Assembly (NCBI GenBank): GCA_001724265.1
Contig: MEDY01000198.1
Location: forward strand, 1 to 53,454
Direction: 5' to 3'
DNA: 53,454 nt
Origin: Rhizaria sp. SCN 62-66
Taxonomy: Eukaryota
The translations under genes and the position numbers were made by a program. The stretch's first letter is position 1. Each line of letters starts with the position of its first letter. Below the pieces are notes generated by a model. It was given only the letters and a program-made list of their open reading frames with translations, searched no databases and was not told the origin of the DNA. Positions 1 through 40,467 of this stretch are shown piece after piece.

Positions 1-186
1 AAGAACGGAGTCAAGACGCTAGTTGCTGCGGGACACCCCAAGCTGCGGTTCGATAACAAGACTGTGCTCGTGGCGGGGCTGAAGGACTGCAACGTTGAGA
101 CTGTTGGTGAGTTTTCGAAGGTCCAGATTAAGTACAAGCCGCTGATGAAGCTCAAGCAACCGCCGCCTAACGAGAAGGATAAGTAA
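1..186 (+). CDS. 3' end of an unidentified protein-coding gene (partial, begins upstream of the window)
   Basis: Frame 1 is open from base 1 (KNGVKTLVAAGHPKLRFDNKTVLVAGLKDCNVETVGEFSKVQIKYKPLMKLKQPPPNEKDK) to TAA at 184-186. Codon usage looks coding and is followed by an AT-rich spacer. Family not recognised. Confidence 0.65.
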   Translation, partial: KNGVKTLVAAGHPKLRFDNKTVLVAGLKDCNVETVGEFSKVQIKYKPLMKLKQPPPNEKDK

Positions 187-437: not shown

Positions 438-3400
438 TCAGAAGCCAACGTCGTCGAACTTCTTCAAGATGCGGTGACCAGTCCTGTCGGCAGCCTTGCC
501 CAGCACCTGTACCGTTCCGTCGCTCATGCCTACAACAATGCCGCGCAGCGCGAGAAGACCGACGCCGGGCGCCGTGTGGGGCGTTGCACCACTGCTGTTA
601 GAGGGAAGCTGGGATGGCGCGCGCGTCGCGTTGCCGCCACTAACGCCGACAGCCACGCCTGCAGCGGAGCCAGCAGCTGCAGCAGTCGCAGCAGCAGCGG
701 GAGACGCGCCCACCGTCGCCGCATTCGCAACAGTGTTTGCCGCACTGTTGTTATCGTTCGTGCCAGCCCCAGTGTCGCCGGTCTCGCCACCTGCGCCCGC
801 GGTCACCGCAGCTGTCGCCGCCGTGGCGGCTGCGGCGGTCAGGCGCGCGAGAGTGAGCGGCGCCAGCGTCAGCGCAGTCACAAGTGGACGACCCGCAACG
901 CCAGTGCCCGTGGTGGCGGCGCCCGCAGTCGCAAGTGAGGCAGCCCCAGCGCCTGCACCAGAAGACGACAAAGCCGTTTGAAGCTGAGCAGCTGCAGTCG
1001 CAAAACGCGAGAGCAGATATGCTTCCGAGAATGCGTCAGCGTGAACAGCGTTCGCGCCAGCCATGTTGGAGTTGCCGACAGAGGCAAACTGCGCTGGTAG
1101 AAACGCGGACTGCATGGCAGCAAGCGCAACGGCATACGCCGCCTGATGCATGCGCTGTTGCAGATGCAACATCAAGTGTTGCGTCGACAGCGAACTAAGC
1201 GTTGTCTTTCCTACTACGCCAGCAGCGATATTCTTCGTGATCACCTGCGCAACGCCAGCCGCAGCTGGAGCTGCGGACGCGCCGATCCCGACTGCGCCCG
1301 CAGCAGACCCGGTGACCGCAAGCGCGGCGCGAGGGCGCAGCGGCGCGCTTGCGACTGCGCACAGCGACACGGCGTCGAAGAGCATCAAGCCCGTCCCCGC
1401 TGTAGCAGTGGCCGCGATGACAGCCGCAGTCGTCACTCCGGCGTTTCCGCCAGGCGCCACGAGCCCGGGAGCAGCGGGGCTGCGGCTCGGCACGGGCGCC
1501 AGTGCGGGGCCCGCGACGGCGCCGCCAGCGAGCACGCGCGTGTGGTCGGGCGTGAGCGACAGCGCAGAGTAAAGCCCCGAGTCGGGGTCCGCCAGCACCG
1601 CAACAACGCCGGACCGAGATGAGAGTGATGAAGGCGACATCGCCGCAGCGGGCGGCAGCGCGGTGCCCAGCGACTGCTGCGTAAGGTTGCCCGCTGTCGC
1701 ACCAGCTGACGCAGCCGTAGCGACCGCCGTGGCAGGAATGAGTCGCAACACAACGGTGCTAACAGCGGCTACAAGAGCACCCTCAGCCGCAGTCACTGCG
1801 TAGAGCGCGCGCGCTGTGCGCGAGTAGAAAATGACTGTGGGCACCGCGGCGCGCGACGCGATTCCGACCCATGACGCTGCGGCAGGGCGCGAAAAGTCGA
1901 GGCTGTGCGCGCTGGGTGGCGCCGCCAGCGCAGCGGCAACAGTCTCAGAGGTAATGACAGTGAAAGCGGCGCCTGGCGCAACCCAAGGCAGTGTAAATGC
2001 GGCTGCAGCAGTGGGTGTTGCAGTCGCGCAGTTGCCTGTCGGGAGGACAACAGGCGCAGGTGCGCGCGACGCAAGAGGCGCAAAGCGGCAACGGCCGTCT
2101 GCGTGAGCACTCACAAGCAAGTTAAGCCGCCTGGAGACAGCAAGCGCGGTAACACGCGAGCTTGACTGCTGCTGCTGCTGTTCCTGCAAAGGCTCTAGCG
2201 GAGATAGCGCAAGACGGGGCAGAGGTGACAGCAGGCCCATGGGGGTTGCGGCAACAGAAGACGCAACAGTCGTAACGACTCTGCTGTTTTCACCGCCATC
2301 GCCTTCATAATCACCGTCCTCGTGCGAGGCCGTAACACGGTGAACCATGCTCGCGTCCACTGGCGCGCTAGCCTGCGCGACACCACCGGCACCCACGCGC
2401 CACACCCACACAGAGCCGTCGGAGGTGCCGACTGCGGCGAACTCGCCGTGGCTGCTCGCGCCGCCGTTGCGCTGACTGGCCGTGAGTGCAGAGCGCACGC
2501 GGCCGACGTCAGGCAGACCGCGCACAGCCGAGGTCGTCGTGGCGATGGTGTGCATCGTGCCCAAGCGCGTGGCGGCGGCGGCAGCAGCGGCGCGAGCCTG
2601 ACGGCGCGCGGCGCGGGGAGCGTTCGCTGCAGCAACAGCAGCGGCGGCTGCGGCCGCAGCAGCGGCGTTGGTGGAGGTCAATAGGACACTGTCGCCGTCT
2701 TCGTCGTCATCGTGGTTGTTGCTGTTGGCGTTTTCAAGACCAGATGCGGCAGGTGTCGAGCTTGTGTTGGTCGGAGCAGCAGTGGTTGCAGTGGCAGCAA
2801 TGTAAGCAGCAGCCAGCGCGGGTAGCTTGCACAGTAGCTCGAGCTCGTCCTCGTCACTTTGCTCATGCTTCGAGGCACTGTTCATGGTTGCACCAGTTGT
2901 AGCAGCAGCAACAACATCGCCACCGTCTTCGCCCTCGTCTGCTTCATCTTCCTCTGCGTCACCGGCACCCGTCACGGCGACGCACGTGCTTACAGTCACT
3001 TGGCCAGTCACAGCATGCCTCGGCAGCGCAAAGCATTGTACAAGACGCACTGCCCCAACACCGCTGCTGTTCGCATTGGTCATCACAGCATTCACGTTAG
3101 CAGAACTGCCCGCAGCAGCGGTGCTCGCTGATAAGGCATTGGCTGACGGGGCATAAGGATGCGACTGCGCGTGGGCGAGACCGATTGCAAGCGTGCTGAG
3201 CCGTGCTAAGGCGTCGCGGCGACTGTGCGCAGAGCGCAAAGAGGCGAGCTGACGCAGTGCACAGCGCTGACGGCGACGGCGGTGTCGGTCAGCGGCAGCG
3301 TTGTCGTTGCGCTCGTCACTTTCAGAGCATGATGAAGACGACGACGAGAACGCAGATGAAAAGAAGTCGCTGTGAGACGCTTCAGCTGCGGCAGCGGCAG

Positions 3401-6400
3401 CCTTGTCGTTAGCAGAGGCAGCGGCAGCCAAACTAGCAGTCTTCTTGTCCGATACAGACTCGTGGTCACTGCTGCTGTTGCTGCCACTGCTAGCGTTGTC
3501 GTCCTCGTCGTCGTTCGTACTGCGTTGCCAGAACCAAAAACCGCGTTTCTTTTTCTTCTTCTCTTTCTCTTTGCCGTTCGCTGCATTGACAACAGCGTTG
3601 GTGGCAGTCGAGGTAGCGGTACTCTGCTCGCCATTCTTGTTGGTTCCAGCCGACACAGTAGTTAGCCCAGACGCAGCAGCATCCGCAGCAGAAGTTGCAG
3701 CCATCAGAGCAGGCGTCGTCATTGCGACTGCAAGTCCTGCGTCTGCTCCGTCGTTAGGAGCAACTAGAGCAACGCTTGCAGCAGTCACCGCCTTCGCGGC
3801 AGCAGAAACAACTCGCTCAGTTGCCTTGGCCAGCGCAGAGGCGGCCGCGGAGACAAGCGTGGCGCGGCCGGAAACAGGCAACAGTAGCGCAGCGCGCCGC
3901 TGTGAACGCTCGCGGCGTCGCTGCAGCCTCTGACGCCGGTCACTCGGAACGGCAGCTTCTACAGGATTCGCGGCAGCAGCCGCAGTCGACGTGAGCCGCA
4001 CAGTGCCGTCGATGTGACCGGTGGAGAGCACAAAGCGTGCGCCGCCGCGACCGCGCGTCACAGCCAGGAGAGAGCCCAGGAGTGGCACAGCAACACTGTC
4101 AACAGTGTTGTCAGCAGACGGAGCGGCAGCAGGCGGCACGGTTGATGCGGTGACGGCAAGCGCGAGCGACGCCCAGCGCTTGCTGAGTTCTGCGTTAGCG
4201 TCGCCTGTAGCACCGGAGACACTCGCGGCAGGACTAATAAAGAAACGGCGCGCGGTCGCGGCCGCAAAAGCAGCGGCTGCAGAGTACGCCATAGTCTGGT
4301 CAAGCTGCAGCGGAGGCGCGGGATACGAGCCACCAAACTGCTGCACCTGAAGCTGCTGTTGTTGTTGCTGGAAAATGCCCTGAATCGCCATCAGAAGCAT
4401 CACATTGGCGGCAGAGGCAGCTTGGGTCTGAATCTCAACGACAGCGGCCGTCCGCATCTGACGACGAACCGCGCTCTCCCCCAGACGAATGCTCGCTGAC
4501 GAGAGCATCGGCACAAGAACTGCAGGGCGAGAAGCCATGTGACTGTGAGCGGTCTTTGTCCAGAGAAGCTGGTTGAGCTGGAGATGTTGCTGTAGTGACG
4601 GCACCGAGGAAGCAGTGCGGGCGTGGGCAGGCAAAGCAAGAGACAGAGCGTGCTTCTCTTTCTTGACACTGACGGTGAACGCCTTCATTGCCGCCTCGAC
4701 GGCCAAGACCTGTTGCCACGCTGCATTGACGCGCATTGCATCGGCCGCGGCCGCCTCAGACAGCGGGAGCACGGCGGCAAGCGGAGACAAAGCGGAGCCA
4801 GCCGCAGTCGCAACATCAACGCTTGCGGTGAGAGGCGCAGCCGGATACACGGGGTCTAGAGAGGTCGTGAGCGATCCTACTAGGGCCTCAGCAGCAGACC
4901 ACACGCCGACCACATGCTCGCTCCGGCATGTTGCAGCTGCAGCGTCAGTCTTGCTACCAGCAGTCTTGTTCTTTAGCCCAGTGATGCATCCGGAGCCGCC
5001 GGAGGCCGTCAGCGCACGGGATGCCGTGCGTAAAGAGTCGAGAGCGCGCGAGGCGGCCAGCGTGCGCGCAGTGAGCCGCGCCAGTCCGCTCGCGTTGCCG
5101 CTGCCGTTGCCCGTTAAGCCGGTGACAGGCATCGGCGCGGGTGCCACAGCCGAGGACTGTGAGGCAGCGGTAAGCCGGAGCGCAGTGGACACGCCAGTGG
5201 CAGTTGCAGCGGCAACAAACGAAGCCGTAAGCGGCAGTTGCTTCGCAGCAACAACCAAGTCCCTCGCCAGCGCACTCGTGGTCACACCCGCCGCAGCAGC
5301 CGCCAGGGCCGTGTTGGCGGCGGCGGTGGTCGCCGCGGACATGGTCGCCGAGCTGCTGCCCGCGTTGGCTGTCACGGCCACGGACAGCGGCCGCAGCGCT
5401 TGCGCCTTGGCGACGGCAATGGCGAGCGACTGCGCGTGCGCCTGCGTCGGCGGGAGTAGTGACAGCAGCAGCGGCAAGTTCGCGGCCAGCGTCGTCGCCA
5501 GAGCGGGGCCCACGTGCGAGAGGGCGTCGGCAAGGGTGATGAGGCTGCTCCCGGGGTAGCCAAAGGCGAGTCCGTTGCTGGCTCCAGCGCTCGCACCGCG
5601 CTTGCCCGTGACTGCGGCAGCCACGCCGCCGGTGTTCGAAGTAGAAGCGGCAGCAGCAGCGGCAGCGCTCGCGGAGGTGACGAGTGACGCGGGCAGTGCA
5701 GCCTTACTATTGGCCGGAATGATCGCTGCCGCAGCAGACGCAGCGTACGCGGCCGCGTTCGCACTGGCGACAGCCTCGCTGCTCTCGTCGCTGCCAGCCC
5801 CCACGATTGCGGTCGTCGCGTTGACGGTTGCCGCGGCCGCAGCGGCTGCGGAGACCGTGATCGCAAGCAGCGCTCCGGCGGGCGCAACGATGGTAGCAGC
5901 GACGGCCGCAAGCGCGGCAGCCGTGGCGGCCGAGACCGTGGGCGCGGGCGTGAGGAAGAAATGCGGGTAAGAGGGAGACTCGATCCACGAGTGCACCAAC
6001 ACGTGGCCAGTGCCCATGCTCGACGTGGCCGCGGGCGGGGAGGAGCTTGGCAGACCCGCGTGGCCGCCGGCGCCTGCAGACACTGTTGGTGCGGTGACAG
6101 AGGCAGTGACCGTGGGGGCGTAAGCAAGCGGGAGCTCCGCAGTGAGCACAATGCTCTCGCTCACGCTCGCACCAGCAGCAGCAGGCGCACCGGGAGCGAC
6201 AATGGCGGCGGCGGCGGCCGGGGCAACGGTGGTGATGCTCGCGGTCACCGTGGCGGCGGGCAGCGCAAGTGCAAGCGGCAGAGGCGCGGACAGCGCTGCA
6301 AGCGTCACAGAGAGAAGGTGAGAGCGCCTCAGCACGCCCGCCCCCATCTCAGCCCCAGCTGCTGCGGCCGCTGCCGCTGCCACCGCCGTACTCGCAGGAC

Positions 6401-9400
6401 CGCCGGCAGCACCGCCGGCAGGCGTCATCGCAGCGGACACTGCGCTCGCGCCCGCGCCCGCAGTCAGCGTGTGGGCGGGCGTCGAGAGCGCAGTGCCGCG
6501 GACGCGCGCAAGCGTCTTGAAGATGCCGTGACCGACGCCTGAGCCCGTCACAACGGGGGGCACGCCCGCGCGGTACTGGTAGAAGTTGCTGTTCACGACA
6601 GTCTTGCCGACGGGCGCACCCCCAGCTGCACCGGACCCGGTTGCCGCAACAGCGGTGGAAGCCGGCGCCGGTGATGACCACTGCGAGCCTGATTGCGCGG
6701 CGCCGGAGGTGGGCGTCGACGCAGCACTATGGCCACCAGCAGCAGCAGGCGTGGGCATAGAGCCGAATGCGGGCGAATGACCATAGTTCTCAGAGTTCAA
6801 ACCACCGAGCGACAGGACGTAGCGGCGGCGACGGCGGGTGGCAGCGGCCGCGCGACGGCGGCGACGGACGACAGCGGCCGCGGCAGCAGCCTCTGAAGCA
6901 GCCTCGCGGGTGTTCGGGTGCGTGAGCGTGATGGTGAGCGGCGCCAGCGAAGACGTCGCTGCACGGCCGCTGCGCGCGTTGTTGAACGCGCCAACGGCGT
7001 TCACTGGCACAGCGGCTTCCGTGTCGCTCAGCCAGTCCTCCCCGTCGTCGCCGTCAAGAGCTGAGCCGGAGTAGCTGTCAGGCGGGTCAGCGTGACTGTG
7101 TGCAGTCACGTGCCGGCCCAGACCCTTGTAGCCGTGAGAAGCTGTGCTAAACGCGTGTCCGCTGGCGCGCTCAACGCTACCCGTGGTCGCGAGGTCCGCA
7201 GCCCAGCCATGGCGCGTCAAGACGCCGGCCAGCGGGCGCGCGTGGGTGCGCGCCGCAACCGCAGTGGCTGCGGCAGAAGCGGCGGGTGCCGAGGCAAACA
7301 CGGTGAAGCGCGAGAACGGGCTCGCAAGCGCGTCATGAAGCCAGTAAGAGGCCTTCGTGGCGCGCTCGCACTGAGCGTTTCCACTGCGACAATCATCGTC
7401 GTCACTGCTGCTCATGTCGCTGGGACTGTCGTTGTCATTGTTGCTGTCATCACTGTCAGCGTCGGATGCAGCACCAAACGCAGCAGCCATCGCAGCGGTT
7501 GCGGAAGTTGCAGCATTGCACGCAGAAAGCGTCGTCGTCTGTCGGCGCACACATGGGGCAAAGAGCAGCAACGAAACAGGATCGGTGCCCACAGTCATCT
7601 CGTTCAGCAGCACCAGTGGCGGCATCAGCGTCGGGACGCTGCTACTTGCGCCAGCAGTGCTTGGAACAGAACTAGTACCGGCCGCCGCAGAGGCAGCAGC
7701 GGCGCTCGAGCCCTTGCCCTGGCCTGCGTTGGCAGTCGTCGAGGAGGGCAGCACAGAGGGCTGCTTATGCAGAGGCGGAATCGCGCTAGTGCTGGCGGTG
7801 GGCGACATCAGCGAGCGGCTTGCGTTCCCAGCAGCCGAAGCCGAGGCAAGAGGAGAAACCGAGCTAGAGGCGTCAATCGGCGAGGCCACGCCGCCCTGCG
7901 AGGAGTGCTTACTGCGTGTGAGTGTCACGGGACGTACGGAAACCGCGGCGGGCCGAGTGTCGACGCGCTCGCTGGCGCTAACGCCGAGGCGGGGCGGGTG
8001 ACGACACACAAACAGGGGCTGCGGCGTCTGACCAAAGTGCTCAGTCTGGCTCAAAATAGCTTCGCGCTGCGTGCGGCGCTGCTGAGCGTGCGCGAGAGCG
8101 CGGACACGGACAAGGGCGGCGGCACGAGCACGCTCCTGCATCTGCTGCTGCTCGCGCGAAACGCTGTTCGAGGTGACGGCGACGATGGAAGTTGCGGTCA
8201 ACGCAGATTGAACGGCAGTGTTGGAAGGCTGAATCCTCGGTAAAACAGTAATGCGCAGAGCAACTGCAACAGTAGGAGTAATCCTGTGCACAGGCAGCAG
8301 CTTGATAGTGAGCAAAACTATGTTAGTGTCCTCGTTACTGACAGCAGCGTCAGCCTCAGAGGAGCTGGTCGCATTCGCGGTCGCGTGCAATCGATCAGAG
8401 CTTGATTCTGCGGCTGCTGCGTCACTGCCTGTGGCATTCGATGTTGTACCCGCAGTATTGGCGTTGCTCAACACCCAGTCATCGCCAACGTTCACGACCG
8501 CGCCTGCACTGGCGCGCACGCTAGCAAGTCTCTTTAGCACCGCAATGGCCGAGTCGGTCTCAGCGCTCGCAGTCGCGGCAGGAACAGAAGGCGCCGTAGC
8601 GACGGCAGCTTTGGCGGTCATGGACACAGCCTCTGCGTCAGCATCGGCCCAAGCGGCCCTCACCACGCCACTGGCCCAGCTTGTGGCAGCAAAAACGTTG
8701 CGCGCGCTAACCGCGGCAGCGCCGCGTTGCTTGCAGCCGAACACAAGGTCGATCCAGCCGGGCAGCATTGCCGCCACAGCGTCCGACTCGAGCGCAAGAC
8801 GCGAGAGCAGCAAGAAGCGGTGTGGCGAAGCGTGGGCCCAGGGAGGCAAGTGTACGTCGTCGACCATCGTGCCAGTGCTCGCGCCACTGCTGCCTGCAGT
8901 CGCACCGCTGTTATCGCGTGTGGCGCTGTTGCCAGGTTGCAGACGATTAAGCCACAGACGGTGCGAGTTGCGGAGCCACGCGGTTGAGGCAAATGCCTCA
9001 GGAACAATCTCCTTGATGTCAGCCGAGTTGGTCATGACGCCAGCCCAGGCCTGTGGCAGCGAAGACAGCAGACGGTCAGCAACGTCGAAACGGCCCTCCT
9101 GCAGTGCAGTCGCTTGCGCAGCAAGCGCGGGCAGACGCAATAGAAAGTGCAGCGCCGTACCGGGATTGCTGTAGTGCGTGCCAAACATGAAGGGTGTCTG
9201 CACAAACAGCGCGCTGTCGTCAGCGCCGGCGTCGTCGTCGTCGTCGTCTTCCTCGTCGTCGTCAGCGGCGTTGGGGCTCCGGGCCATCGCGACGGGGGAG
9301 CGTGCGGACCGCAGTCTGGCTGCGAGCGCCTTGGTGGCCACAGCCTCAGTGACGCGTTTCGCCATCGAGCGTGCGCGCGACGCGCCACCGACAGCCACAA

Positions 9401-12400
9401 CAACTGTGAACACAGCTGTCGCCGCCGCTGCAGTCGTCTTGAGCGCAGCGGCCGCGCTCGCGGGCACGTGGGCGTTCGTGGGCGGCGCAGAGGGATCATC
9501 CATCGCCATCGACACCATGGTTTCAAAGCGCGTCAGCGCTTGACGCAGACGATCGCGCGCGAGAGCACCGACGGGGCGCGAGAGATCGCGCAGACACGCC
9601 GGACCAGAAGGCGAGGCAGCAAAGGCAAACGGGGCGGGAACAGCAGCGGCCGCAGCAGCGGCAAGAACAGCAGCAGAGGACGGCGATGCAGCGGACCGCG
9701 AAGAGCTGCGCTGGCGCCTGTACATCTGCATTTGCTGCTGGTGCTGCTGTGCATTCGCGGCCGAAGGTGTGCGGCTTGTTCCAGAGCTGATGCGCCTGGT
9801 AAGCATGGCGTGGGGCGGTGAGGCCGAGGACGCATCCATGGAGTGTTGCTGCAACTGTTGCTGCGCGCCAAGAGCTTGCGCGGCGTAGGCAGCGTTTGTG
9901 AGTGCGAGGGTGTTGTCAAACTGCGGCAGCATCTGCGAAGAGAAGTCGCAAAGGACCCACGGGAACACAGGATATTGCGATAGGTCGTTGAAGCTGCGGC
10001 CAGCATAAGCGTTGAGGTGCATCAAATACGTAAACGTGCTGATACGGCGCATGCACCACGCTTCGGTCAAACCAGAGCGCGAGAGTGCAAACTGCGGCGC
10101 CAGCGCGCGCGGTAGCCACTGCTGCAGCAGGCCCCACGATGACGAGAGCGCGGGCAACGGCGCCAGGGAGAGTGTGGATGCAAGCAGAGGCGCCGGCGAC
10201 ATGCGGTGCGAGGGCAGCTGCGAGGGTGCGTTGTGGAGGAACCAGTAAGGCACAGGCAGCGGCAGCAGCGTGCGGGCAAGGAATGCGCCCTCAGCGGCGG
10301 CGGTTGCGGGGCTAAGAAGAGGTGCAACGGGGAACACCGCGGGTGCAAGCGACGATGCACCAGAAAGCAGCACGTGGCCAGTGGTGATGAGCGGCAAGGC
10401 GTTGACGCGAATGCGTGGAACTGGACTCGGCATTGCAGCAGCAACGTTAGAGTTATTACCACCCATCGCCATGAGCTGACGCGGCATGCCAGGAAAGTAG
10501 TTACAAACCCCTGCAGCTCTTACGCCGCTCACAGTGGGCAAGGTAAGCGCGGGGTTCAAGAGCAGGCTTTCGCTGACGCCGAGTTGGCGCGACCAGCACT
10601 TGACCAAGCCAGGATAAGTGGCGGCGTACGCTGAAGAGGAGATGGATAGATCCGAGTCTGCGTCTGTTGCCAAGGCAGCATTCGCATGCGAGTTCGTTGC
10701 CCCCGACGCAGCAGCTGCAATGGCAAGCGCAACGATCGTGTTGTGCTCCGCAAGAGCGCCTGTCGCAGCGTGTTGGTGTCGTGACAACCAGCGGGCGTAC
10801 GGTGCAGCAGTCGCAGACAACAAGGGTTGCGGGCCACTTGCGATGGCAGCGGCAACAGTGTCATCAGCCAGAGCAAGGGGCGAAGGCTTGAGCCGTCCCC
10901 AAACACACTGCTGCAGCAGCGACAAACGCGGAGGAAGCAGAACACGCCCGCTTGTAGAGGCCACGTTCTGCGGAAGGTGATCCCGCGCAGAGACTTGCTC
11001 GCGGTGCTGCTGGAGGGCCTTGACGATCGCAACAACGGCGTTGTCGCGCGCGAGCGAAGACGGGAACACCAGGAACAGCGACGTCCGGGCACGGACAGCG
11101 GCACCAGTCGCCGTCGTGGCAGCCGCGGCAGCAGTGACCGCAGGCGAGACGCGGGGCGCGCGCCAGACGAGCTCGCGGTCACTCGAGCACGCGTTGTCAT
11201 TGCAAACGCCCTGACTCTCACTCAGTGGTACACTCGGAACCGCAGCCGCAATTGGTGCAGGGGCAATGAATGTGAGCTCAACGGCAATCTCTTGCAGTGT
11301 GTGCCGGCGCAAGTGCAGTGACTGTACCTGCGACAGTGGCCACGAGCAGGAAAACGGCGCCGACAGCAGCTCTGCGGTGGGCACAGTCGACGCAGCCTGG
11401 GAGACAGACGGCGCGGTCGCGTTGCCCACTGCAGTCGCACCCACCTGCACGCTCTTGCACTGGGCAGCTGCATCAATAGCGGTGAGGCTCACTGTAGAGT
11501 TCGTGGCTTCTGTCGTGAAGAGCCCAGCCAGCCGTTTGTAAGCGCCCTTGCCGCCCGCAGTCTCGGATAACGCGTAGCATGTTGCCGCGGCCGCCACAGC
11601 AGCGGCGTCAGCGGCCGCAACTTTGCTCACGAGCGACATCGCGCTATCACTGCCGCCAGCCGGAGCCAGGGCGGCCGTGGTAGCCTGGGCCTTGGAGAAA
11701 GCGCGGTGAACAATGCGCGTCCACGTCGACGGCATCGCGGGCGGTGCGGGCGAAAGCAGCGCTTCGGCGTTCACAGCTGCGGCAGCGGCGGCGGCGGTCA
11801 CGATGTCCGCGTTTGAGGCACCGTTGGCGTAGAGTGCGTGTGGCGCCGCGACACCGTCAGCAGTGAGTGCGGCGGAGGACGCCGCAGCGAGCAGAGCGAG
11901 CTGCCGACTCAGCGCCTTTGCAACAACGGACACAAGTAGCGGTACATACACAGGACAAGTGACAGAGACAAACGATTCAGAGGTGTCAGATGTCGCAACA
12001 GTATGCGGATGAGAGGGCAATTCTGGCTGTTGAGCCGCATTGTTTCCGCTGTTGGAAAGACTGGCCCACGCTTCCTCAAGGAGCTTACGCACAAGCAACG
12101 ATTTGCCTGGAGCTTGGCGAGGAGACTTGTGTGCGCTAGAAGCATGCGCAGTTGAGTGACCACGAATCTGAGGACGCAGGTGAGTGCGGCCATCTTCGAG
12201 CATCCACTGCTCACAGTCGGCGCTTAAGTTAGGCTGCGGCGGGGGGACGGCCAGTGCAGCAGCGGTGAAGGTCACACCAGCGGGCGTGACAGTGACAACG
12301 CCCGGCATCGAGTCAAGGGATACACGCACACAAGGCGCCGTGAAAACAGTGGGCAGCAAAGCCTGGGAGACCAATGCTGACGAGAGGCGAAGCGAGGTCG

Positions 12401-30400: not shown

Positions 30401-33400
30401 CGCACTCAGGGACGCACTGATTAGCGTCGTCCTCAGCATCCAGAGCAGCAGTAAAAGGCGAGGCTTGAGCACTGTTCACCAGCAAAGGCTCCTCATTGTC
30501 GAACAAGAACAACACAGAGCCGAACTTGTTCTTCCGCTTGCCGCGCGCGCCACCCTGCGCTGAGTTACCACCGCGCGTCATCACGACGCCCTTGATGAGA
30601 CTCTTGCGGAACTCTTCGCTGCCGACCACGCTGTCAATCTCGTCCACGGCCCACGCGGGCTCGGTTACGGTCAGCCCGGCGCCGGCTTCCTTAGTCGCCG
30701 CACTGCGCGCAGGCGGCATGCCCGCAGTGGCAGCAGCCGCGGCCGCAGCAGCGGGGCCACTCGCCCACTCGCACTTGCCACGCGCAGCCGCGGCCGCCGT
30801 CTCCGCGTCGCCGTCAGAAACCCTGGCCGCGTGTGCCGGGGCAGAGGCTTGCGAGGAAGCGAAGCGCAGCACGGACGCATCAAGCAGGCCCGACAGCGCA
30901 GCGCCGACGTCTTCGTCAGTGGTGACTGCAGCTCTAGCACTCGCGTTGGTCGTGCTCGCAGCGCCGGAGCGGTACAGCAGCTGGATCTGCGCCCACGACA
31001 GTGGGGCCGCGAAGACGGCCGCCGCCGCAAGATGCACGTGCGCGGCCGGTGCGGGCAGCGCGACAGTAAGCGCCACGGACTGCGGCGCGTGTGCACCGAC
31101 AATCACGGGTGCAGCAGCGCCTGAGGACTGGGCAGAGGCCGAGCCGGTGGCGGAGTCGGGGGACGCGGAGGGCGGGGGCGGTGTGGGTGTGGGCGTGATG
31201 TTCGGCGTCGAGAGCGGGTTGCTAGCAGCAACCTTCTTGCCGCTGTTACTGGCGCAACTGTTCCGATGTTGGGAAGACGGTAGCAGCGCAACAGATTGGC
31301 CGTCGACCGCAGTCACAGCGCCAGAGGCGGGAACGCCCGCCGTGTTTGAACGGGAAAACGACTGTGCAAAAGGTGTTGTCAGGCCGTGCACTGGTGTGCT
31401 AACGCCAGAGACACCGGCACCGGGGGAATTCCCAGAGAAAGACGGGAACGCACTGGGAAGCGTGCTCACACTCCGGTTGACACTGCCGTTGCCACTAACA
31501 GCCACGGAGTTGACATTCGCTGCGGTCGTTGCGGTAATAGTGGGGTATGACGCGGATAAAATATGACTCTCTAAGTGAGTGTTTGCTCCGTCGTCACAAA
31601 ACTTCTGCGATTGCGTTGTGCCTGACTCTGTGCTGCTCTTCTGTGTTTGCGCAACGTTGCTGCCGCGGCGCGGGCCAGGATGAGGGTACTTGAGCGCGCC
31701 AGTCGTGTTCGCGCAGATCGTGCGGCCGTTAAGACACACGAGCAGCGAGGACGCTATAACGCAGCCGTCGTCCTCGCGCGCGTCACTGTCGTTCGCGGTC
31801 TTAGTCTCTTTGTCATTGGACTCAGTCGCAGTCATCCTAGGGGCGGAGTACGGAACAGTGAAGGCGTCCTTAGTGACGGTACGCACGTGTGACGGAGCGT
31901 GTGCAAGCGCGAGATGGTACCAGCGACCCGTGCGCAGCGGCACGGGGGCAAGCACAGAACTGCGCAGGCGTAGATCAGGAACGCCCACACTGACGTCGGC
32001 ACTCATAGTGGCAGTGGGAGTCATGGTTTGGAAGTGCAAGTAGCCCTTAGAATCAACGTAGATATCAACGACGTCGCCACTCACGCGCACACTCTTAGAC
32101 TGGGAATGCTTGGCTGGAACGCCCTTAGAGGATGCCGCGCTCTTGCCCTTGCCCGATGAAGTCTTAGCTCCATCATTATTCTGCTGCTGCTCAGTAGTAT
32201 CAGCAGGACTCTTGTTATTGACAGCGGGATTCGAGAGAGGCGGGACATCCGTGCATACACGCGCGAGATGCACCATACCACTGATGCGGACGCCCAGAAG
32301 AACACCGTCAACGTCCACAAACTCCTTCGGGTAGTTCTCGGCAGGCGAAGGCAGCGACTCAAGCTGGAACCAGAGGCTGAACGTGTAGCCATTCGAAGGG
32401 AAGCGTTTGGAACCTAGAGCTGTCACGGACGAGGAAACGCTGCGACTGCACAAAGCGTCACTCGGAGTAAACGTGGGCACCGCAGCTGTGAGTGCCGCGG
32501 CCACAGCGGCAGCAGCAGCAGTCGGGGCGGACGCAGACGCAAGAGTGAGAGCGAGGGACAACGGTTGGCAGAATCGGGACTTAAGCGCCTGAACCAGAAT
32601 GGAGCTGAAGTCACGCTGGTTGCGTCCAGTGCTCGTTGAGAGATACGAGCGCAAGTATGACGAGATGGTAGACACAACACCATTGTAGACGGGGCTGTGG
32701 CTGCTGACCGTGGGAGCAACTGTCAATAGAGAAGCGGGAGCAGAAACAGGGGACACTTCAACCCACTTTGATGCGCTGACGGTCTTGGACACAGCGGTGG
32801 TCTTGCTCGCAGTGACGGCGTTGCCATAGGTCAGCGCACCCGGGGTAAGAACGTGCGTCAAGAGGTCAACAATCATTGGGGTGAGCGGCGAAGCCACTGT
32901 GATCACTGTCGAACCAGAGTCTGTGTTGTTAAATGCGCTATGCCCGGCGTCATTGTAGAGCGGCTGCGAGGCGAAGAGCGTGAAGGGGAGCGCAGACAAG
33001 GTGGCCAGCACGTCCTCAGTGCTGAGCGAGCTGGTGGATTCAGCAATCGCACTGGGGACAGCTGACGCGTTGACGGCGGCGACGCTGACAGGAGCAGAGT
33101 CAGGGGCGGCGGTGAGCGACGAAAACTGTTTTCGCAGTGACTGCTCAAGTGAGGATATACCGCGGTTGAGCATAGCAACGACGGCAGCCGGAGTCACAAG
33201 GCTCTTGGTTGAGACACGGGCAGCACGGGGAGATTTGCTAACACTCTTACGACGAGCAGCCTTCGACCTCGCGGGAGACTGAGGCGGCTCAATCTCTGAT
33301 TCGGAATCGGAGTCAGAAAGAGGCTCAGTGATACTGGGTAGCAGCTTCCAAGCCTGTCCCTCGCCGTGTGCGGCAGCAGTGTCGTCCGCAGGAGCAAGCA

Positions 33401-36400
33401 AAGCGGTGCTCGCGGCCAGTGGGGACGCGAGGGCAACAGTGCGCGGCGTCGCAAGCGCGAGGAGGCGCTTCACGCTGCCTACTGCCACGCCGCGCGAGAG
33501 CAACAGCGCCAGCAGCTGCACGGCGCGCGCGGCCGCCGCCGTCGAGGCGGGGCGCGCGGCGGCGCAGACAGTAACAACAGAGCTGTTGCCGATGTGCGAG
33601 TGCGAGAGAGGGTGGTTGTGCAAGTAGGCCAGAACAGCGTCAAGAAGGGAGAGCGGCTGAGCTTGAGTTTCGGTGACGGAAGCGTCGGCAGTAGGAGACT
33701 GGGTGACTGTGAGAAGCAGCGAAAGTGACCGCGAGCACGCAGTAGCGACGGCCGACAGCCAGCGCGACTGCAGCAGGGCTTGAGCATGCGTCAGCGTCTC
33801 GGCACCAACAATAAGATTGTTGACGCAAGAGAATGTGACCATGAGCGTGTGCGTAAGCGCATTAATGGAGGCGATTGCGGAACCAGTGTCAGGCGCAGCA
33901 GAAAGGGCATCGTTGGCCGCAGACACTGCTCCATCAGTAGGTTTAGCAGATCCGACAACCGTTGTCGTTGTCGTGGGCGCTAAGATACAGCCCCACAGGT
34001 AGCCAGTGTAGGTGCCGACAACGACGCGCTCACCCTTCGACTCCACGCCGGGCGCAGAGATCACCAGAGCGTTGTTGTTATCGACAGTTGCGTCCGCAAT
34101 GTTCAAGTGCAAATACCTGCAGTCGCGAACGCCCACACTATCCGCGCAAGCTCCGGCCAGGTGGCTGCGCGCAGCAGATGCAGCGGTTGATAAACCACGA
34201 AGTGCAGGTGCTGCAGCCAGATCAAGCGGACTCTCAAACCATAGCCTTTGTGGGACAGGGGAAGTTGCGTCCGTTGGCTTCATGTCCGCATACTCAGCCA
34301 AGTAGCGAAGAACGAAACCACGCTTAGCTGCCGATGCACCAGCAGCCGACGTCATCACTGCAAAGTCCAGCGAAAGAGCGGCAAGATCTTCCTCAAAAGC
34401 AGCATCAGCCGCCTCAGCAGCACGAGCGGATTCCGCGACAGCCTTTGATGCGGCAGCCGCGGCAGTGGTGTCGCCGCCAGCAGCAGTCACAGCGTCCAGT
34501 AGCGCGACGGCGTCTGCAGCGGCGTCATTGACGGCGGAAACAGCGGTGACGCGTCCACGCCAGTGGGCACGGGCTGTCGCCATGGCCGTCGCGACCGCGC
34601 CAGTGGTAGATGCAACGTAGGAAGTGACAACTGCGGCAGCGGGCGCGCAACCGCGGGCGACTGCGAGCAGTGTCAGCAGTGACGACAAAGCAAGCGCCCG
34701 CGTGTCGCGGGTGCTCGCAACAGCGGGCGCAGAGCCAGGGACACAAATGGCGATGCAGGGGGATAATGCCGTCGTAGCCAAGTCGTCAGTGGAGTTCAGA
34801 GCAAAGTTCGCTGCAGCCGCGGCATCAGCGGCAATAACAGTCGTGATACAGTTCGCACAAGCCTTGGCAATGACATCAAGACCACTTACAGTCGCGTTGC
34901 CACCGGGGCTAGTGGAAGCTGGGGCAAAGAGAGAGTGCGTCAGCGGCAACAACAGCTGCAGTTGTAACCAAAGCACAGCGGCTGCCTCAGTCTCACTCTC
35001 AGAGTCGATGGAGGACGGCAGAGCGAGCGGTAATGCAAGGCAGTGGCGGAGACCTGACAGAAGTAGACGCAGCAGCGCGGGATCAGCGAAAGACGCGGAC
35101 ACCGCTGAGGAGGCGAACAATGCCAAGTAGTGATCCAACGCGGAGATGGCTGTCGTATTAGGCGCCACCGAGACTGCAGTCGCTGAGTCAGCCGCAAGAG
35201 CATCGGTGGTAGTGAGCAAAATAGACTCGGGCATCACAGAGCGATAATGCGGAGAGAGCAGCGTCGTGTACTGCTGATGTTCTTGCGACACGGAGTTCGT
35301 ATCTTGAAACACAACCTTGTACGCAAGCGACCTGACGTAGGCAGCCAGGCGAGGCAGAGGTTCCTTGTTTTCTTCATTGCCGTCAATGACCGCGGAGTCA
35401 ACAGCGATGTCATCGCTCTTCGCGCTAGCATACGCGAGCGGGGCATCAGGCGGCAGCGTGGGCAGAAAACCAGTTCCAAGGCCGACATCGTCACCGGGGA
35501 AAGGCACGATTTCAGCGAGATAGGCGAAGTCCTCTTCCTCGTCTTTAACAGCAACGTTCTCGGCGTTGGTTAGCTGCAGCCGCTGCGATGCCGACTCGTC
35601 GTCACCGCGACTATTCGCCTTCGCGCTGGCCTGGCGACCGCGGCCACGGCGGCGACTGAACATGAGCGCGTCATCGCCCTCGACACCGTCGACGCCGCTG
35701 AGAACGCCGTCGCTTGCTGCCGCGCCTTCGTGATCGTGGTCGCCGTGCAGCGAGCCCTTGCTGCCGATGCCGTCGTCGTCGTCGTCATCGTCCACGGGGT
35801 CGCGGTGCGCGCTGTTGCTGTGGCGCCGTCGCTGCCGCGCGCCGTTGGCGAGGAGCAAGTCGCGCGCCGCGGCGCCGATGGCGGGTCTGGGATGCGACAG
35901 TGGCGACAGAAACGACTGCGCCTTGAGCAGCCCCTTCTTTTCGCCGCCCTCGCAGGCAGCGCCCGCGGCAACGCCGACGCTCGCGCCACGCGCGTGGCGG
36001 TGCTGCAGCTGCTGCTGCAGCAGAAATCTCGACGACGAGGCCAGCGGCGGCGACAGCGAGCGCGCGACCGACCGCGACTTGGGCCGGCGGCGCGACAGCG
36101 GCAGCACGCCGCTGCTCTCGGCGCGCGCGCGGGCGCGGGATGGAGGCGCCGGCTTGTCGGAATGCAGGCCGCCGGTGGAGGCGTTAAGCGCGATGTCGGT
36201 CGCACTATCTTCGAGGTGCTGGCGCTCACCGGTGTTGCCGCCGTCGCCATCTCTGTGGGCATCAACATCGTCCTCGATGACGTCGCGCGTGTTGTTGGCC
36301 GCTTCGTTTTCGTCCTCGTCCTCGTCGCACAGCGCGGCCTCCTCGTCTTCGTCGCCTTCAAAGCCGTCGTCTCCCTCGTCACAGTCGTCGCACGCGTCCT

Positions 36401-39400
36401 CATCGCCGTCGACGTCGCCGTTGCTGGGGGCACCGGAACCGTTGGCAGCGCTGTTGTTGGGATCGCGCACAAGCCCCGGGACGCCGACACCGACGGCGAC
36501 GCCCATACCGGCGGGAAGGCCGCGGGCGCAGAAGCGAACCGCTGGGAGAACAGAAGAGGCGACACCAGCGACATTGGCAGTGGCTTCGGCGATCGTGCCA
36601 CCCGAGTGACCTGTCAGCGCTCGAGCGTCGACTACAGGGGCCGTCACAATGTCAGCAGCAGCAGGTGACCCAGGCGTGAGAGCGTTGATCGGCGCATCAT
36701 TGTCTAGGGCGGTGCTCACCGGCAGGCGGGCCTCGATGGGGTCAAGACACCACAGCAGACCCAGAGGCAGCGTCTTAATAGCAGCGCTGGCGCCGGTGCT
36801 GCCGGCGCCAGCAGGGGCAGTCCGCGCGCGCAGTGGAGCCCAGGGCCACACGACATATGGGGTGTTAACATCGCGGACGACACAGTTCGACTGAAGCTCA
36901 TGACTCTGTGGAGCGACTGCCACTTGAGTTGAGCCAACTGTTGCACTGCGCGTCGCCTGTAGCGCAACCAAGTGCGCCAAGAACGCGACGGCAAACGCGT
37001 GGCCCTGCGAGCACAGCCGCGCCGGCAACACGGGCTCCGCCGCAGCGGCGGACATAACCGTGAGCAGGCACGACAGAGACAGCGCCGCGGCGGGCGACGG
37101 TGCGGCGCTGCGTGCGGCGCTGTCGGGGGGGCTCAGAGTCAGAGCGAGCAGTGCGCGCATGACAGCAACGCGCGCGATGGCGAGAAGCGGCCGCATCTGC
37201 TGTGTAGGCTGCTGTTCAGGTTCTTGCTGCTCCTGTTGCTCCTGTTGTTGTGTTAGTGATGTTGCAGTGATTGTGTGGCGGCGCGCGAGCGCAAGCAAGG
37301 CCACGCCGAGTCCAGTGTCGAGGCGGTTGAGACTGCAGCCAAGAGCGCCCACGCATGTGGTGAGACGCAGAGCGCTCACAAGAGCAGAGCGCATCACAGT
37401 CTTGCTGTGGGCGATGACTGCCGCGCCAGCAACGCTCTCATCCGCAGCGACTTCGATCATATCGGCGCCGGGAGCAGTAGAAAGCGTGTGTTTAAGCGTG
37501 AGCAGTGAGAGCGCGGAGTCCGCAGCGTGCGCTGCGATGCTGTCGTGCTCCGGCAGCAGAGTGAGCAGACGCAGCGGGAGCATGCTCGCGGCGACCCAGC
37601 CGGCCTCCTCCACACCGCCGCTCTCGCCGAGACAGTCGGATGAGAACGTGTACGGAGCGAAGGGAGAGCGGAGCAAGGACGACGCCTTCGACATAATCAC
37701 AGAAAGCAAAGATGCAGTCGACTGACCACTGATTTCATTGTTATGACTGCACAAAGACAAAACTAGCGGCCAGCGCGAGCGTGCAGTCACAAGCGCGTCA
37801 ACCGCGTTCAGAGCGCAATGAATCGCGCCGCTTGCAGTCAGAACAGAGCTTGCGTCAGTAGCCGCACTGCTGCTGACAGCGGTGCCAACAACATCAACGC
37901 AGCCGCAGTCACTGCCGCAACAGCCGCTATACGCGCCCGCGCGGTAGCAGACCGAGGCCGTCCCAGCCCCAGCAGCAGCAGAGTCTGTGGTCATAGGCGC
38001 CACCGTCATTTTCGCGGCAGCGGCCGGAGAGAGCGCGGCGGCGGCAGCGACGGCGGGGAGTCCCGACTGCCACAGCAGCGCGGGGAGCACGCCCGCGCTG
38101 ACGCTCGCGTTCTCCCTCGCACCGCTGCTGACCACGTGCGCGATCGCGGAGAACATGGAGCTCTGAAGGTACTGCACGTACGCCTGAAGACCAGCGCCCG
38201 TGCTCGCATCGTCGTCATTCTGCATTGCCAGGGTGTGATGGAGCAACGTGAGCAGGTGTGCACCGGCGCCGGCACACGCGCTCTCCACAGCAACCGCCGC
38301 GGCAAAGAGAACGGTGAGAGATGACGACTTGGCGGCGCACACAGGCGGCAGTGTGGGGCAGCGGGCCGCAGCGCTGGCCGCAAAGGCCGCCGACAGCGAC
38401 CGCGCAGCCGCAGCCTCAGTGGCCGCGCTGGGCACGGCGGCGGTGCCGGTCGCGGCAGCGGCAGAGCCAGAGGCAGAGGCAGAGGCAGAGGCGGCGGCAG
38501 AGGTGGAGGCGGCGGCGGCGACTGCGAGGGCGGCAACGGGCACGGTTGCGCTGATAACGACAGGGAAGCCAGTTGCGTTTGGGCCGTCGGTGGCGACAGC
38601 GGAGGCAGGAGACAAGGCGGGGTTTGTGGCAGTGACGGTGTTGGCGGCCGCGCTCTCGTCGTCGCACCAGGCATACAACACGCCGCTGAGGAACTCATTA
38701 TTGACGCCACCGCTGGCGCTGGAGCCCTCGCGGTCGCCGTTGCCGTTGCTCGAGGTAGCCACGGCGCTTGTGTTGCTGTGGCCGCCGCGGAGGTAGTGGC
38801 CGGTGAGCGGGAGCGCAGGCATGCAGCTTACGGTCACAGCGTTGCTGCTGATGCTGTTACCGCATGCCGAAGCGTCAGCAGACTGGGCAGCGACCGCGTC
38901 TAACTGGCGGCAGTTGACGTCAGCGCTGCCGCTGTCGCGCGCCCACCAGGCGCCGCGGCTCGCGGGAGGCAGCAGCGCGGAGAGCACGGCGCTCGCGGCG
39001 TCGCTGCGGCTGCCGGTATCAGAGTTGCTGATACTATCCACGACGAGGCTAGTGCTACTGTTGTTGTTGTTGTTGGAAGAGAAAGGTGACGACAAGACGG
39101 CAGTAACTGCCGCAACCATAGCCTGCTGAAGCGCGGCCACGTCGCTTTGGTGTGGTGTACTCTCGGTCACTGCAGCTGCGGTTAAGTCGTTCTCATTGGC
39201 CGACACAGCGGCAGCCTTTGCTGTCGCAGCAGCTGTGGAGAGAACCGCGCCAGCCAGCAGCAACGCGCGCAGCAGCAAGAGTTGTTGCGCTGCTGACTGC
39301 TTCTGCCGCGGCGTGCGCTGTCGCAGCACCGAAAACAGCAGGCGTGCGACCGAGCTCTCGCTCGCACGCGCACTCACAAGCGCAGGTGCAGGCGCAGTTG

Positions 39401-39923
39401 CAGTGTCAGCATCTGCGTCCAAGGCTGCGAGTACGCTAAGTTGGTCAAGTGTCGCACTCGTCAGCAGAGAACACGCGGATATAGCACGATCAATGAGTGC
39501 ATCATCATCAGCAGATGCAGATGCGGAGACAGCGGCTGCGGCTACGGTGGCGACAGCGGTGGACGGTGCAAAGCGTGCGCAGTACGCCTCCACGCTCGCT
39601 ATCGCGTCGCTCGCAGTAGCAACAGCCGCAGAGACAGCAGAGACTACGGGCGAGACTGTGGGCAGCAGCGAATGCAGTCGACGCAGCACAGCGGCGGGCG
39701 CGGGCAGCGTGGGCGGCGGCGGGCGTAGCGGGCGCGCGCTCTCGACCACAGCGGCGGCGAGCCCGGCGTCGGGGACGCTGATGCTCGCGGGACCAAACGC
39801 GGCGGCCGTGAAGGCGGAGATAGGGCCCGGCGGCGGCGAGGCTGGGGCGGGGTCGAGCGCGAGCCGCTGCAGGGCCTGCGCGCCAGCGGAGCCCTGGGCC
39901 AGGTGGAGCGGCAGGGACGACAT
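438..39923 (-). CDS. Giant single-exon BEACH-domain protein (~13,161 aa; neurobeachin/NBEAL/ALFY-like ConA...PH-BEACH-WD40 architecture with an inserted pseudokinase)
   Basis: Uninterrupted ORF; first ATG at 39923 (the ORF-track start at 39938 is GTG); TGA at 438-440. BEACH signatures: W..[115 protein letters not shown]. NBEA-like [14 protein letters not shown] at ~28993-29040. Confidence 0.93.
   Translation of the reverse strand: [13161 protein letters not shown]
490..4040 (-). other. Dispersed C-terminal WD40 repeats of the BEACH protein
   Basis: WD-like blades [14 protein letters not shown] (~3994-4035), [16 protein letters not shown] (~2395-2442), [24 protein letters not shown] (~2083-2154), [13 protein letters not shown] (~1525-1563) and [12 protein letters not shown] (~505-540), separated by long Ala-rich inserts. 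Confidence 0.75.
7990..10075 (-). other. BEACH domain, split by low-complexity insertions
   Basis: All canonical BEACH motifs occur in order from [12 protein letters not shown] (~10070) to [9 protein letters not shown]..HPPR (~7990). Spans ~695 codons versus ~280 aa for a typical BEACH domain. Confidence 0.92.
11020..12350 (-). other. BEACH-associated PH domain
   Basis: [51 protein letters not shown] (cf. consensus W.L..I..V..RRYLL...ALEIF) and [19 protein letters not shown] lie immediately N-terminal of BEACH. Confidence 0.8.
17100..18930 (-). other. Degenerate protein-kinase (pseudokinase) fold inside the BEACH protein
   Basis: Ordered kinase-subdomain remnants: [20 protein letters not shown] (beta2-beta3 with Lys), [16 protein letters not shown] (hinge/alphaD), [17 protein letters not shown]...LSPWAIGV (alphaE/catalytic loop, no HRD), LRYLHLDSA (no DFG), APPELI (APE), [14 protein letters not shown] (alphaF), [16 protein letters not shown] (alphaH), LLRSNPFL (alphaI). 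Confidence 0.7.
30970..32405 (-). other. Concanavalin-A-like (Laminin G) domain of the BEACH protein
   Basis: [37 protein letters not shown] and [15 protein letters not shown] match the ConA-like module of neurobeachin/ALFY/LYST-family proteins. Confidence 0.75.
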
Positions 39924-40467
39924 CGGACGGGGGGCCACGGGCAGGCGCAGTTGAGAAAAAAAGCGCTTGACAAGCGAGTAGGGGACGCTCAGGAAGAATA
40001 GAAGAAGTTAAACGCGAGAACGCGGTCGCCAGAGGAAAGATACGCTCGGGACTGTAAGAGGTTCACTGAGGTGGTCGAGCAAGAGCGGCACAGAGATGGA
40101 CGTGAGCGTGGTGAGAGTGTTGATGTAATAATTGAGAATAATTCTATGTTTTCTTTTATAAATACGAAAATTGGCTCTATTAACGGATCAATGACGCCAC
40201 ACGAGGGTCTTGAAATGTTGCCCAGTGACGTCGACTGTGGGCGCGGATGAGACGTGAGGCTGGCGAGAGCGACGTAGCAGTCCGAAAACAAGTCTATCCT
40301 CACTGACAGCTTCCGTCAGTAGCGCTATCATTGCTATATGGTAATAGTTTTCTTGCTTTTCATACTGATCTTAAAATTATAATTCTTAACACTCTGTATA
40401 TCTCGCGTAACACAGACTCTCCGCGGTTGCTCTCTGGCCCCTTCTTGCGCCCTCCGCACGAGTTGTT
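39924..40467. promoter_or_regulatory. Putative bidirectional promoter (BEACH gene <- -> DPH7)
   Basis: 544-nt spacer between head-to-head ATGs. Contains AT-rich tracts, three TGACG/CGTCA sites (40192, 40226, 40314) and a 16-mer shared with the second divergent promoter. Confidence 0.7.
40262..40277 (+). promoter_or_regulatory. Shared 16-bp motif GGCGAGAGCGACGTAG, copy 1
   Basis: Its exact reverse complement occurs at 46292-46307 in the other divergent promoter. Confidence 0.6.

Follow-up and report, generated by a model that had tools for sequence, protein, structure and literature searches.

A stretch of 53,454 nucleotides (positions 1 to 53,454 of contig MEDY01000198.1, assembly GCA_001724265.1, from Rhizaria sp. 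SCN 62-66; hereafter the window) was analysed and found to be dominated by a single gene on the minus strand, which was assigned to the BEACH-domain-containing proteins (BDCPs). A complete coding sequence, from ATG to stop, occupies positions 438..39923 (-) in one uninterrupted frame of 13,161 amino acids (aa). Its ATG at 39923 is the first in the frame and forms codon 6 of a stop-free frame (438..39938, minus strand) that remains open upstream to a GTG at 39938 and comprises 13,166 codons counted from that GTG; codon numbers of the giant protein given below start at 39938, and ATG-based numbers are obtained by subtracting 5. A preliminary description of this DNA had claimed a single frame of this length without a stop; the coordinates matched exactly and no internal stop was found. 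The other five frames over the same region contained 291, 513, 251, 212 and 503 stops, with a longest open run of 392 codons, and about 333 stops would be expected in 13,166 codons from base composition alone. A frame of this length cannot be produced by chance. The next-longest open reading frame (ORF) in the window measured 940 aa.

Segments of low G+C content (GC) were almost confined to the DNA outside the giant ORF. Merging of 60-bp windows with a GC below 0.40 yielded 15 segments, 13 of which were intergenic or intronic; the remaining two lay inside the giant ORF at 12971-13030 and 13871-13930 and were both marginal (0.383). Measured in 140-bp windows, the ORF had a minimum GC of 0.436 and a median of 0.629, and its lowest-GC stretches code for ordinary, non-repetitive protein. 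Introns were identified in two neighbouring genes by GT..AG borders together with continuity of the ORF or of homology. An inferred GT..AG intron of 387 nt (46728-47114, plus strand; GC 0.43) joins the halves of a 5-formyltetrahydrofolate (5-FTHF) cyclo-ligase gene, and another of 141 nt (52819-52959, plus strand; GC 0.38), likewise inferred as GT..AG after a GTACGT donor, lies in a gene without assignment. The earlier statement that three neighbours carry introns therefore held for two of them, while the third was not identified. Likewise, the claim that the giant ORF has no AT-rich, intron-like breaks was borne out to the extent that only the two marginal segments lie within it, but the contrast is smaller than implied, the intron values of 0.43 and 0.38 being close to the ORF minimum of 0.436.

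At 39.5 kb, the intron-free exon exceeds the model-organism maxima in the excerpt of PMC3563967, which quotes a longest exon of 17 kb for human and of 27.7 kb for D. melanogaster and also covers mouse, zebrafish and C. elegans; the SACS exon is given as 11.5 kb in an extract of PMC8745260. Its description as an exceptionally long exon is in agreement with these figures.

The identity of the protein was established by its BEACH domain. The Pfam family Beach (PF02138) was matched with 218.8 bits against a curated cut-off of 26.8 bits (expectation value, E, 1.2e-64), and comparison of five 3,000-aa pieces with Pfam revealed no family besides Beach. A domain scan of 58 overlapping 450-aa chunks against Pfam at E up to 1 located Beach pieces covering profile positions 2-58, 83-251 and 245-276. 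In a sequence search of the PDB, only LRBA (1t77, E 1.5e-46) and neurobeachin (1mi1, E 4.6e-42) were matched, in four colinear stretches separated by three inserts of about 104, 108 and 200 aa. BEACH part 1 (9915..10181, minus strand, codons 9920-10008) aligned to residues 99-184 of the LRBA construct. It is followed by insert 1 (9603..9914, -; about 104 aa), which falls between LRBA residues 184 and 188 and for which confidence (predicted local distance difference test, pLDDT) in an AlphaFold2 model was mostly low, and by part 2 (9519..9602, -; codons 10113-10140), aligned to LRBA 188-215. Insert 2 (9195..9518, -; about 108 aa) contains an acidic run and falls between LRBA 215 and 223. The core, part 3 (8670..9194, -; codons 10249-10423), aligned to LRBA 223-376 with a further internal insertion of about 21 aa and was modelled at a pLDDT of 75-95. 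Insert 3 (8070..8669, -; about 200 aa) lies between LRBA 376 and 388, residues 575-674 of the model having a pLDDT below 50, and part 4 (7989..8069, -; codons 10624-10650) aligned to LRBA 388-414. It had been proposed that BEACH is split in at least three places, and the alignment to the LRBA and neurobeachin structures placed all three inserts.

In an alignment of 30 BEACH sequences including the window protein, 26 columns were invariant and 45 were conserved at 90% or more, and the window protein carries these residues. The AlphaFold2 model, built on this alignment for codons 9901-10700, showed core blocks with a pLDDT of 80-96 and inserts mostly below 50-70. When the model was submitted to Foldseek, 1t77_A (E 7.1e-15; template-modelling (TM) score 0.56 on the target) and 1mi1 (E 1.4e-13) were retrieved; these two structures accounted for three of the four PDB fold matches listed and were the only significant ones, with E from 7e-15 to 5e-11 and TM scores of 0.53-0.56 on the target. 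The inserts can be read, from the model, as low-confidence excursions from an otherwise normal LRBA/neurobeachin fold.

Signals of further BDCP domains were arranged colinearly around BEACH. Two Laminin_G_3 (ConA-like lectin) pieces were found at 31881..32423 (-), codons 2506-2532 and 2628-2686, with an insert of about 95 aa between them (E 1.6e-4 and 1.8e-4; 22.3 and 22.1 bits, below the 27.6-bit cut-off), and about 2,500 aa lie ahead of this lectin domain. The start of a DUF4704 neurobeachin-type alpha solenoid was indicated at 28914..29051 (-), codons 3630-3675; the match is weak (E 0.21) but colinear with the other domains. As a lead that agrees with this Pfam order, a feature search of the ESM Atlas with codons 2480-3760 returned Laminin_G_3, Arm_4 and DUF4704 clusters at 0.90-0.95. 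A PH_BEACH (PF14844) fragment was detected at 11268..11348 (-), codons 9531-9557, covering only profile positions 49-75 (E 1.1e-3; 19.6 bits against a cut-off of 27.5), and the PH-BEACH parts of five BEACH proteins gave weak phmmer matches to the giant protein. Downstream of BEACH, a WD40-type C-terminal region broken by inserts extends over 441..4100 (-). One WD40 repeat was recognised in it (codons 12593-12618, window 2085-2162; E 4.9e-5, 24.1 bits against a cut-off of 27), and further WD-like motifs, apparent by eye, were conserved in the best-matching relative P0001 described below, with which the region shares conserved blocks up to a common C-terminal motif; the protein ends 27 residues past the last motif. 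No FYVE domain (PF01363) was found in the 58 chunks at E up to 1 or in the five large pieces. A phmmer search with 300-aa chunks gave weak matches only, at the start of the lectin domain, at PH-BEACH and once at codons 11699-11840. The available text of PMC4489804 describes SPIRRIG (3,571 aa) as having a ConA-like lectin domain and armadillo repeats followed by a PH-BEACH-WD40 module; judged from these matches, the giant protein shows the canonical domain order of a BDCP, stretched about 4-fold.

To collect relatives, codons 9901-10733 were compared by HMMER with the complete set of 1.84 billion representatives. At a threshold of E 1e-3, 7,227 proteins matched, the longest of the 150 listed measuring 3,235 aa. 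The best match, P0001 (E 3.6e-84), forms a cluster by itself and is a contiguous ORF of 2,682 aa on an 11,865-bp metagenome contig. Its alignment to the giant protein is colinear, spans the final ~3,040 codons and has identical residues in 1,067 of 2,479 aligned columns. P0001 begins inside BEACH insert 2, has a version of insert 3 of about 230 aa and shares the motif at the C-terminal end; in comparison with the giant protein the tracts had drifted and the blocks were conserved. P0001 thus comes from a second organism, which keeps the stretched layout in one frame over at least 8 kb. Two metagenome scans for orthologue DNA, one with the C-terminal alignment and one with P0001, found the search patterns in 381 and 592 stretches, respectively, and no relative was confirmed among them.

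A census of protein sizes was carried out in a collection of 5.8 billion clusters with search words from the conserved BEACH core; shared 5-residue words were needed for detection, so that the census is not exhaustive. In the range of 5,500-17,500 aa, a single one of 239 candidates scored as BEACH, namely P0151 with 6,881 aa. Below 5,500 aa, 315 of 7,025 candidates scored, and the 120 listed reached 4,316 aa. Named relatives among those listed ranged from 2,068 to 4,316 aa and were mostly of stramenopile origin (Phytophthora, diatoms, Cafeteria, Triparma), together with insect NBEAL1 and green-algal LvsC-type proteins. An earlier size search with words from 3,700 residues had yielded 446 candidates, none of which scored, probably because low-complexity words dominated. 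The giant protein itself was present in neither collection, and a literature search returned nothing relevant on giant BEACH proteins. The giant is the longest BEACH protein found here, 1.9 times as long as the runner-up P0151. Both the usual size of 2,500-4,000 aa that had been quoted for the family, with which the named relatives and SPIRRIG, as sized in the available text of PMC4489804, agree, and the ranking of the giant among the largest members are consistent with this non-exhaustive census, in which P0151 was the only other protein above 5,500 aa.

The additional length could be attributed to tracts of biased composition. Ala, Ser and Thr make up 20.8%, 12.2% and 8.1% of the residues, 41% in total. 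By a crude measure, in which windows with less than 45% Ala, Ser, Thr, Gly and Pro were collected, 63 islands totalling 3,299 aa were obtained, approximately the size of an ordinary BDCP. The rest of the protein consists of Ala/Ser/Thr(/Gly/Pro)-rich tracts that separate the domains or are inserted in loops on their surface. That Ala/Ser/Thr tracts inserted between and inside domains account for the extra length had been suggested before, and composition, structure alignment, domain scan and islands all agreed with it. About one third of the codons lay in low-complexity windows, all of them without a stop. Tandem Repeats Finder reported just 12 short rows over the 39.5 kb, each of 63 bp or less. 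Ala runs of at least five residues numbered 38, the longest being 12 residues, and adjacent Ala codons were identical in 59 of 201 cases (0.29 versus 0.27 expected at random); synonymous codon use was equal in the low-complexity and the remaining parts. Since DNA repeats are few and the order of Ala codons is random-like, the tracts are not products of recent slippage; they are old, have scrambled codons and are a property of the amino-acid sequence, and at such an age there was ample time for stops to arise had the frame been without selection.

RNA evidence was obtained from public runs. In a run search, 26% of the sampled words were found in a polyA metatranscriptome (X1), about 10% in two runs of another study (X2 and X3), and 80% in a fourth run (X4), whose kind is not stated and which may be the window's own source. 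All four were compared with window positions 438-20437, and all yielded short contigs only. Exact or nearly exact pieces from X1 covered 3629-4060, 6309-6622, 7834-8285, 8536-8862, 9116-9683, 14397-14846, 15895-16202 and 17828-18212, and 2 of 30 bins were without depth in this run. The contig at 9116-9683 was colinear through all of BEACH insert 2 with one mismatch and no gap, and the contigs at 8536-8862 and 7834-8285 crossed both borders of insert 3 colinearly; no insertions or deletions were listed in the X1-X4 contigs over 438-20437. These observations support that the inserts are unspliced in at least some molecules. The contig joints listed were discounted: their sides of 21-33 nt lay in repetitive sequence, none had GT..AG on the gene strand and several included foreign letters, so that they were read as cross-matches from other sequence. 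Variants between contigs were seen at nine sites, three synonymous and six not, each in a single low-depth contig. Exact matches to parts of the gene in libraries from activated sludge and wastewater, made for two studies, place the organism, or a strain almost identical to it, in habitats of this kind.

The genes flanking the giant gene were inspected in the remainder of the window. Positions 1-186 (+) hold the 3' end (61 codons) of a convergent gene, separated by an AT-rich spacer of about 250 bp from the stop of the giant gene. On the other side, the giant gene is separated from a divergent WD40 gene, starting with an ATG at 40468, by a spacer of 529 bp (39939-40467) that includes two AT-rich cores and has the appearance of a bidirectional promoter region serving both genes. 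The neighbours comprise the WD40 protein (40468-42600, +), a sulfate permease with a STAS domain (43152-45974, -), the 5-FTHF cyclo-ligase (47115-48086, +) and a phosphoribosyl pyrophosphate (PRPP) synthetase (49918-51135, +); these four contain 14-19% Ala and have Ala/Ser/Thr-rich linkers or extensions. Within 48850-51135 (+), the DNA upstream of the PRPP synthetase domain is very GC-rich (0.73 at 49001-50000); the region consists of four open pieces in the same frame split by single stops, with a mirror ORF of 642 aa at 48805-50733 (-). In five neighbouring genes that were measured, Ala content was 11-19% and Ala/Ser/Thr-rich linkers were present, such as a long one that connects the transporter domain of the sulfate permease with its STAS domain; 31-aa windows rich in Ala, Ser, Thr, Gly and Pro made up 9-19% of these proteins and 32% of the giant. 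As the neighbours are Ala-rich and carry such linkers, the inflation is probably a habit of the genome and not of one gene, and the giant would represent its extreme end, with milder forms next to it.

Taken together, the locus very probably represents a genuine single-exon BDCP gene, in which Ala/Ser/Thr-rich tracts extend a core of ordinary size to 13,161 aa. By its predicted domains the protein is of the LRBA/neurobeachin/NBEAL/LvsC/ALFY type (lectin/DUF4704/PH-BEACH/WD40). The whole frame would be transcribed and translated as one polypeptide, with the tracts acting as tolerated disordered linkers and loops, and the product may be a very large endomembrane scaffold whose PH-BEACH-WD40 module regulates vesicle or lysosome-related trafficking, as in other members of the family. 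That the open frame implies translation of the inserts had been argued at the outset. The stop statistics, the non-repetitive DNA with uniform codon use, the in-frame inserts of the orthologue and the colinear polyA contigs support this without proving it.

Several points weigh against this interpretation. All domain matches other than BEACH fall below the curated Pfam cut-offs; outside BEACH, BLASTP of the whole protein matched none of 266 other BEACH proteins, the three high-scoring segment pairs obtained all belonging to P0001; and most of the N-terminal 9,500 aa is without domain assignment. P0001 starts with a Met inside BEACH, where the frame may break upstream or the contig may end. Among the RNA data, every contig or read covers a few hundred bases at most, at low depth, carry-over of DNA may contribute to the polyA library, and the nine contig variants are too few to show purifying selection. 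The proposed function is drawn from family membership only.

Another reading of the same frame is that many of the GC-rich low-complexity tracts are in-frame introns (exitrons) that are spliced from most of the mRNA, so that the main protein would be much shorter. The genome does have introns, the GC of which (0.38-0.43) is near that of the lowest ORF windows (0.436), and no full-length transcript has been seen. Introns would, however, not be expected to stay stop-free, while about a third of the codons are of low complexity and none of these is a stop; tract codon use equals that of the rest of the gene; and P0001 holds its tracts in frame despite drift of their sequence. The polyA contigs, moreover, run colinearly through insert 2 and over both borders of insert 3, and the listed joints are repetitive and without GT..AG on the gene strand. 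Splicing of this kind was therefore considered unlikely.

Piecemeal use of the frame, by internal promoters and polyadenylation sites or by proteolysis, would give several smaller products in place of one 1.3-MDa chain. Separate genes need no common stop-free frame, the domains follow the order of a single canonical BDCP, and an AT-rich segment of the intergenic type, present in every spacer by the neighbouring genes, is missing inside the ORF. Nothing direct speaks for this alternative, although the ends of transcripts cannot be seen in contigs this short, and separate units could in principle be formed by the possible kinase-like module and the long unassigned N-terminus; it was judged decidedly improbable. 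That the length is an assembly artefact, caused by a mis-join or by expansion of low-complexity sequence, is barely credible: short-read contigs of all four runs do break at low-complexity places with many spurious joints, and the best-matching DNA run may be the source of the window and hence not independent, but a mis-join seldom keeps one frame over 13,166 codons, there are nearly no tandem repeats to collapse or expand, exact pieces occur in runs X2 and X3 of the second study, and P0001 is stretched alike over 2,682 aa.

Besides the domains of the single-exon BDCP gene described above, a possible degenerate protein-kinase-like module with inserts of its own was indicated at 17019..18986 (-), codons ~6985-7640. 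In a feature search of the Atlas with these codons, all 30 matches were Pkinase clusters (score 0.97, with 221 of 256 features in common). No Pkinase family was found by Pfam in the 58-chunk scan or in five sub-segments at E up to 10, and a sequence search of the PDB with the region gave no kinase at E up to 10; a single-sequence AlphaFold2 model had a mean pLDDT of 38 and was uninformative. Inspected by eye, the region resembles a protein-kinase fold that lacks the catalytic-loop Asp and Asn. BDCPs of the class of WDR81, Arabidopsis GFS12 and Dictyostelium LvsG are annotated with an inactive kinase domain. Should the kinase lead be right, a dead kinase fold together with BEACH and WD40 would be common to this class and the giant protein, but the best matches of the giant's BEACH core are not of this class, and the class is not known to have PH_BEACH, lectin or DUF4704 domains, signals of which are present in the giant protein. 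The literature consulted on kinase-BEACH proteins, which for GFS12 comprised extracts of PMC6905379, contained no description of domain layout. It is conceivable, though doubtful, that the giant is the longest BEACH protein known, about twice the size of the runner-up and encoded by one of the longest eukaryotic coding exons, and that it also carries a degenerate kinase-like module between solenoid and PH-BEACH, a combination undescribed for BDCPs of the lectin/DUF4704 type. If this were true and the 1.3-MDa chain translated, BEACH could fold around three disordered loops of 100-200 aa.

BDCPs include disease-relevant scaffolds (LYST, LRBA, NBEAL2, ALFY), the mode of action of which is still poorly understood. 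A natural variant with inserts in BEACH, lectin, PH and WD40 marks the loops that tolerate insertion and the blocks that cannot be touched, and a 39.5-kb exon is a demanding test for gene-prediction programs, by which genes of this kind are split or missed. The main interest of the locus lies in this natural map of insert-tolerant sites in BEACH and in its use as a test case for very long exons. The giant is regarded as a real and extreme member of a known family, and its translation in full is most likely.

Within this family, the giant protein resembles LRBA and neurobeachin (1T77, 1MI1) and the NBEAL1/LvsC-type proteins: its BEACH aligned over the whole domain with a fold modelled alike, its core is 40-50% identical to relatives, and the predicted domain order is the same, with lectin, DUF4704 and PH_BEACH before BEACH and WD40 after it. 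It differs from them in its length (13,161 versus 2,068-4,316 aa), in the three inserts of 100-200 aa inside BEACH, in the ~2,500 aa before the lectin domain and in the possible kinase-like module in mid-protein, and its other domains are so interrupted or diverged that Pfam scores drop below the cut-offs. ALFY/WDFY3-type proteins have the order BEACH-WD40-FYVE; among the relatives listed, several with the closest BEACH cores (48-51% identity; P0155, P0157, P0176, P0178 and P0186) combine FYVE with Laminin_G_3 or DUF4704, and the best Atlas cluster for codons 2480-3760 was named 'Alfy-like armadillo-like repeat'; the giant differs from this class in having no C-terminal FYVE match. P0151, from an ENA assembly, is also rich in Ala, Ser and Gly (Ala 15.3%, Ser 11.1%), which suggests that the same kind of inflation arose independently in another GC-rich eukaryote. 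It is, however, half as long, its BEACH core is only 36% identical, and Pfam still detects WD40 and NBCH_WD40 in it. The mechanism itself, composition-driven growth of low-complexity sequence, is already known, and the giant is an extreme case of it and no new principle: in protists such as Plasmodium falciparum, according to the consulted portion of PMC11260460, biased tracts are inserted in the coding sequence of conserved proteins. Inserts of the Plasmodium falciparum type are AT-driven (Asn/Lys), whereas the bias of the giant is GC-driven (Ala/Ser/Thr), and its inflation, about 4-fold and adding 10 kb of coding sequence within a single exon, goes far beyond them.

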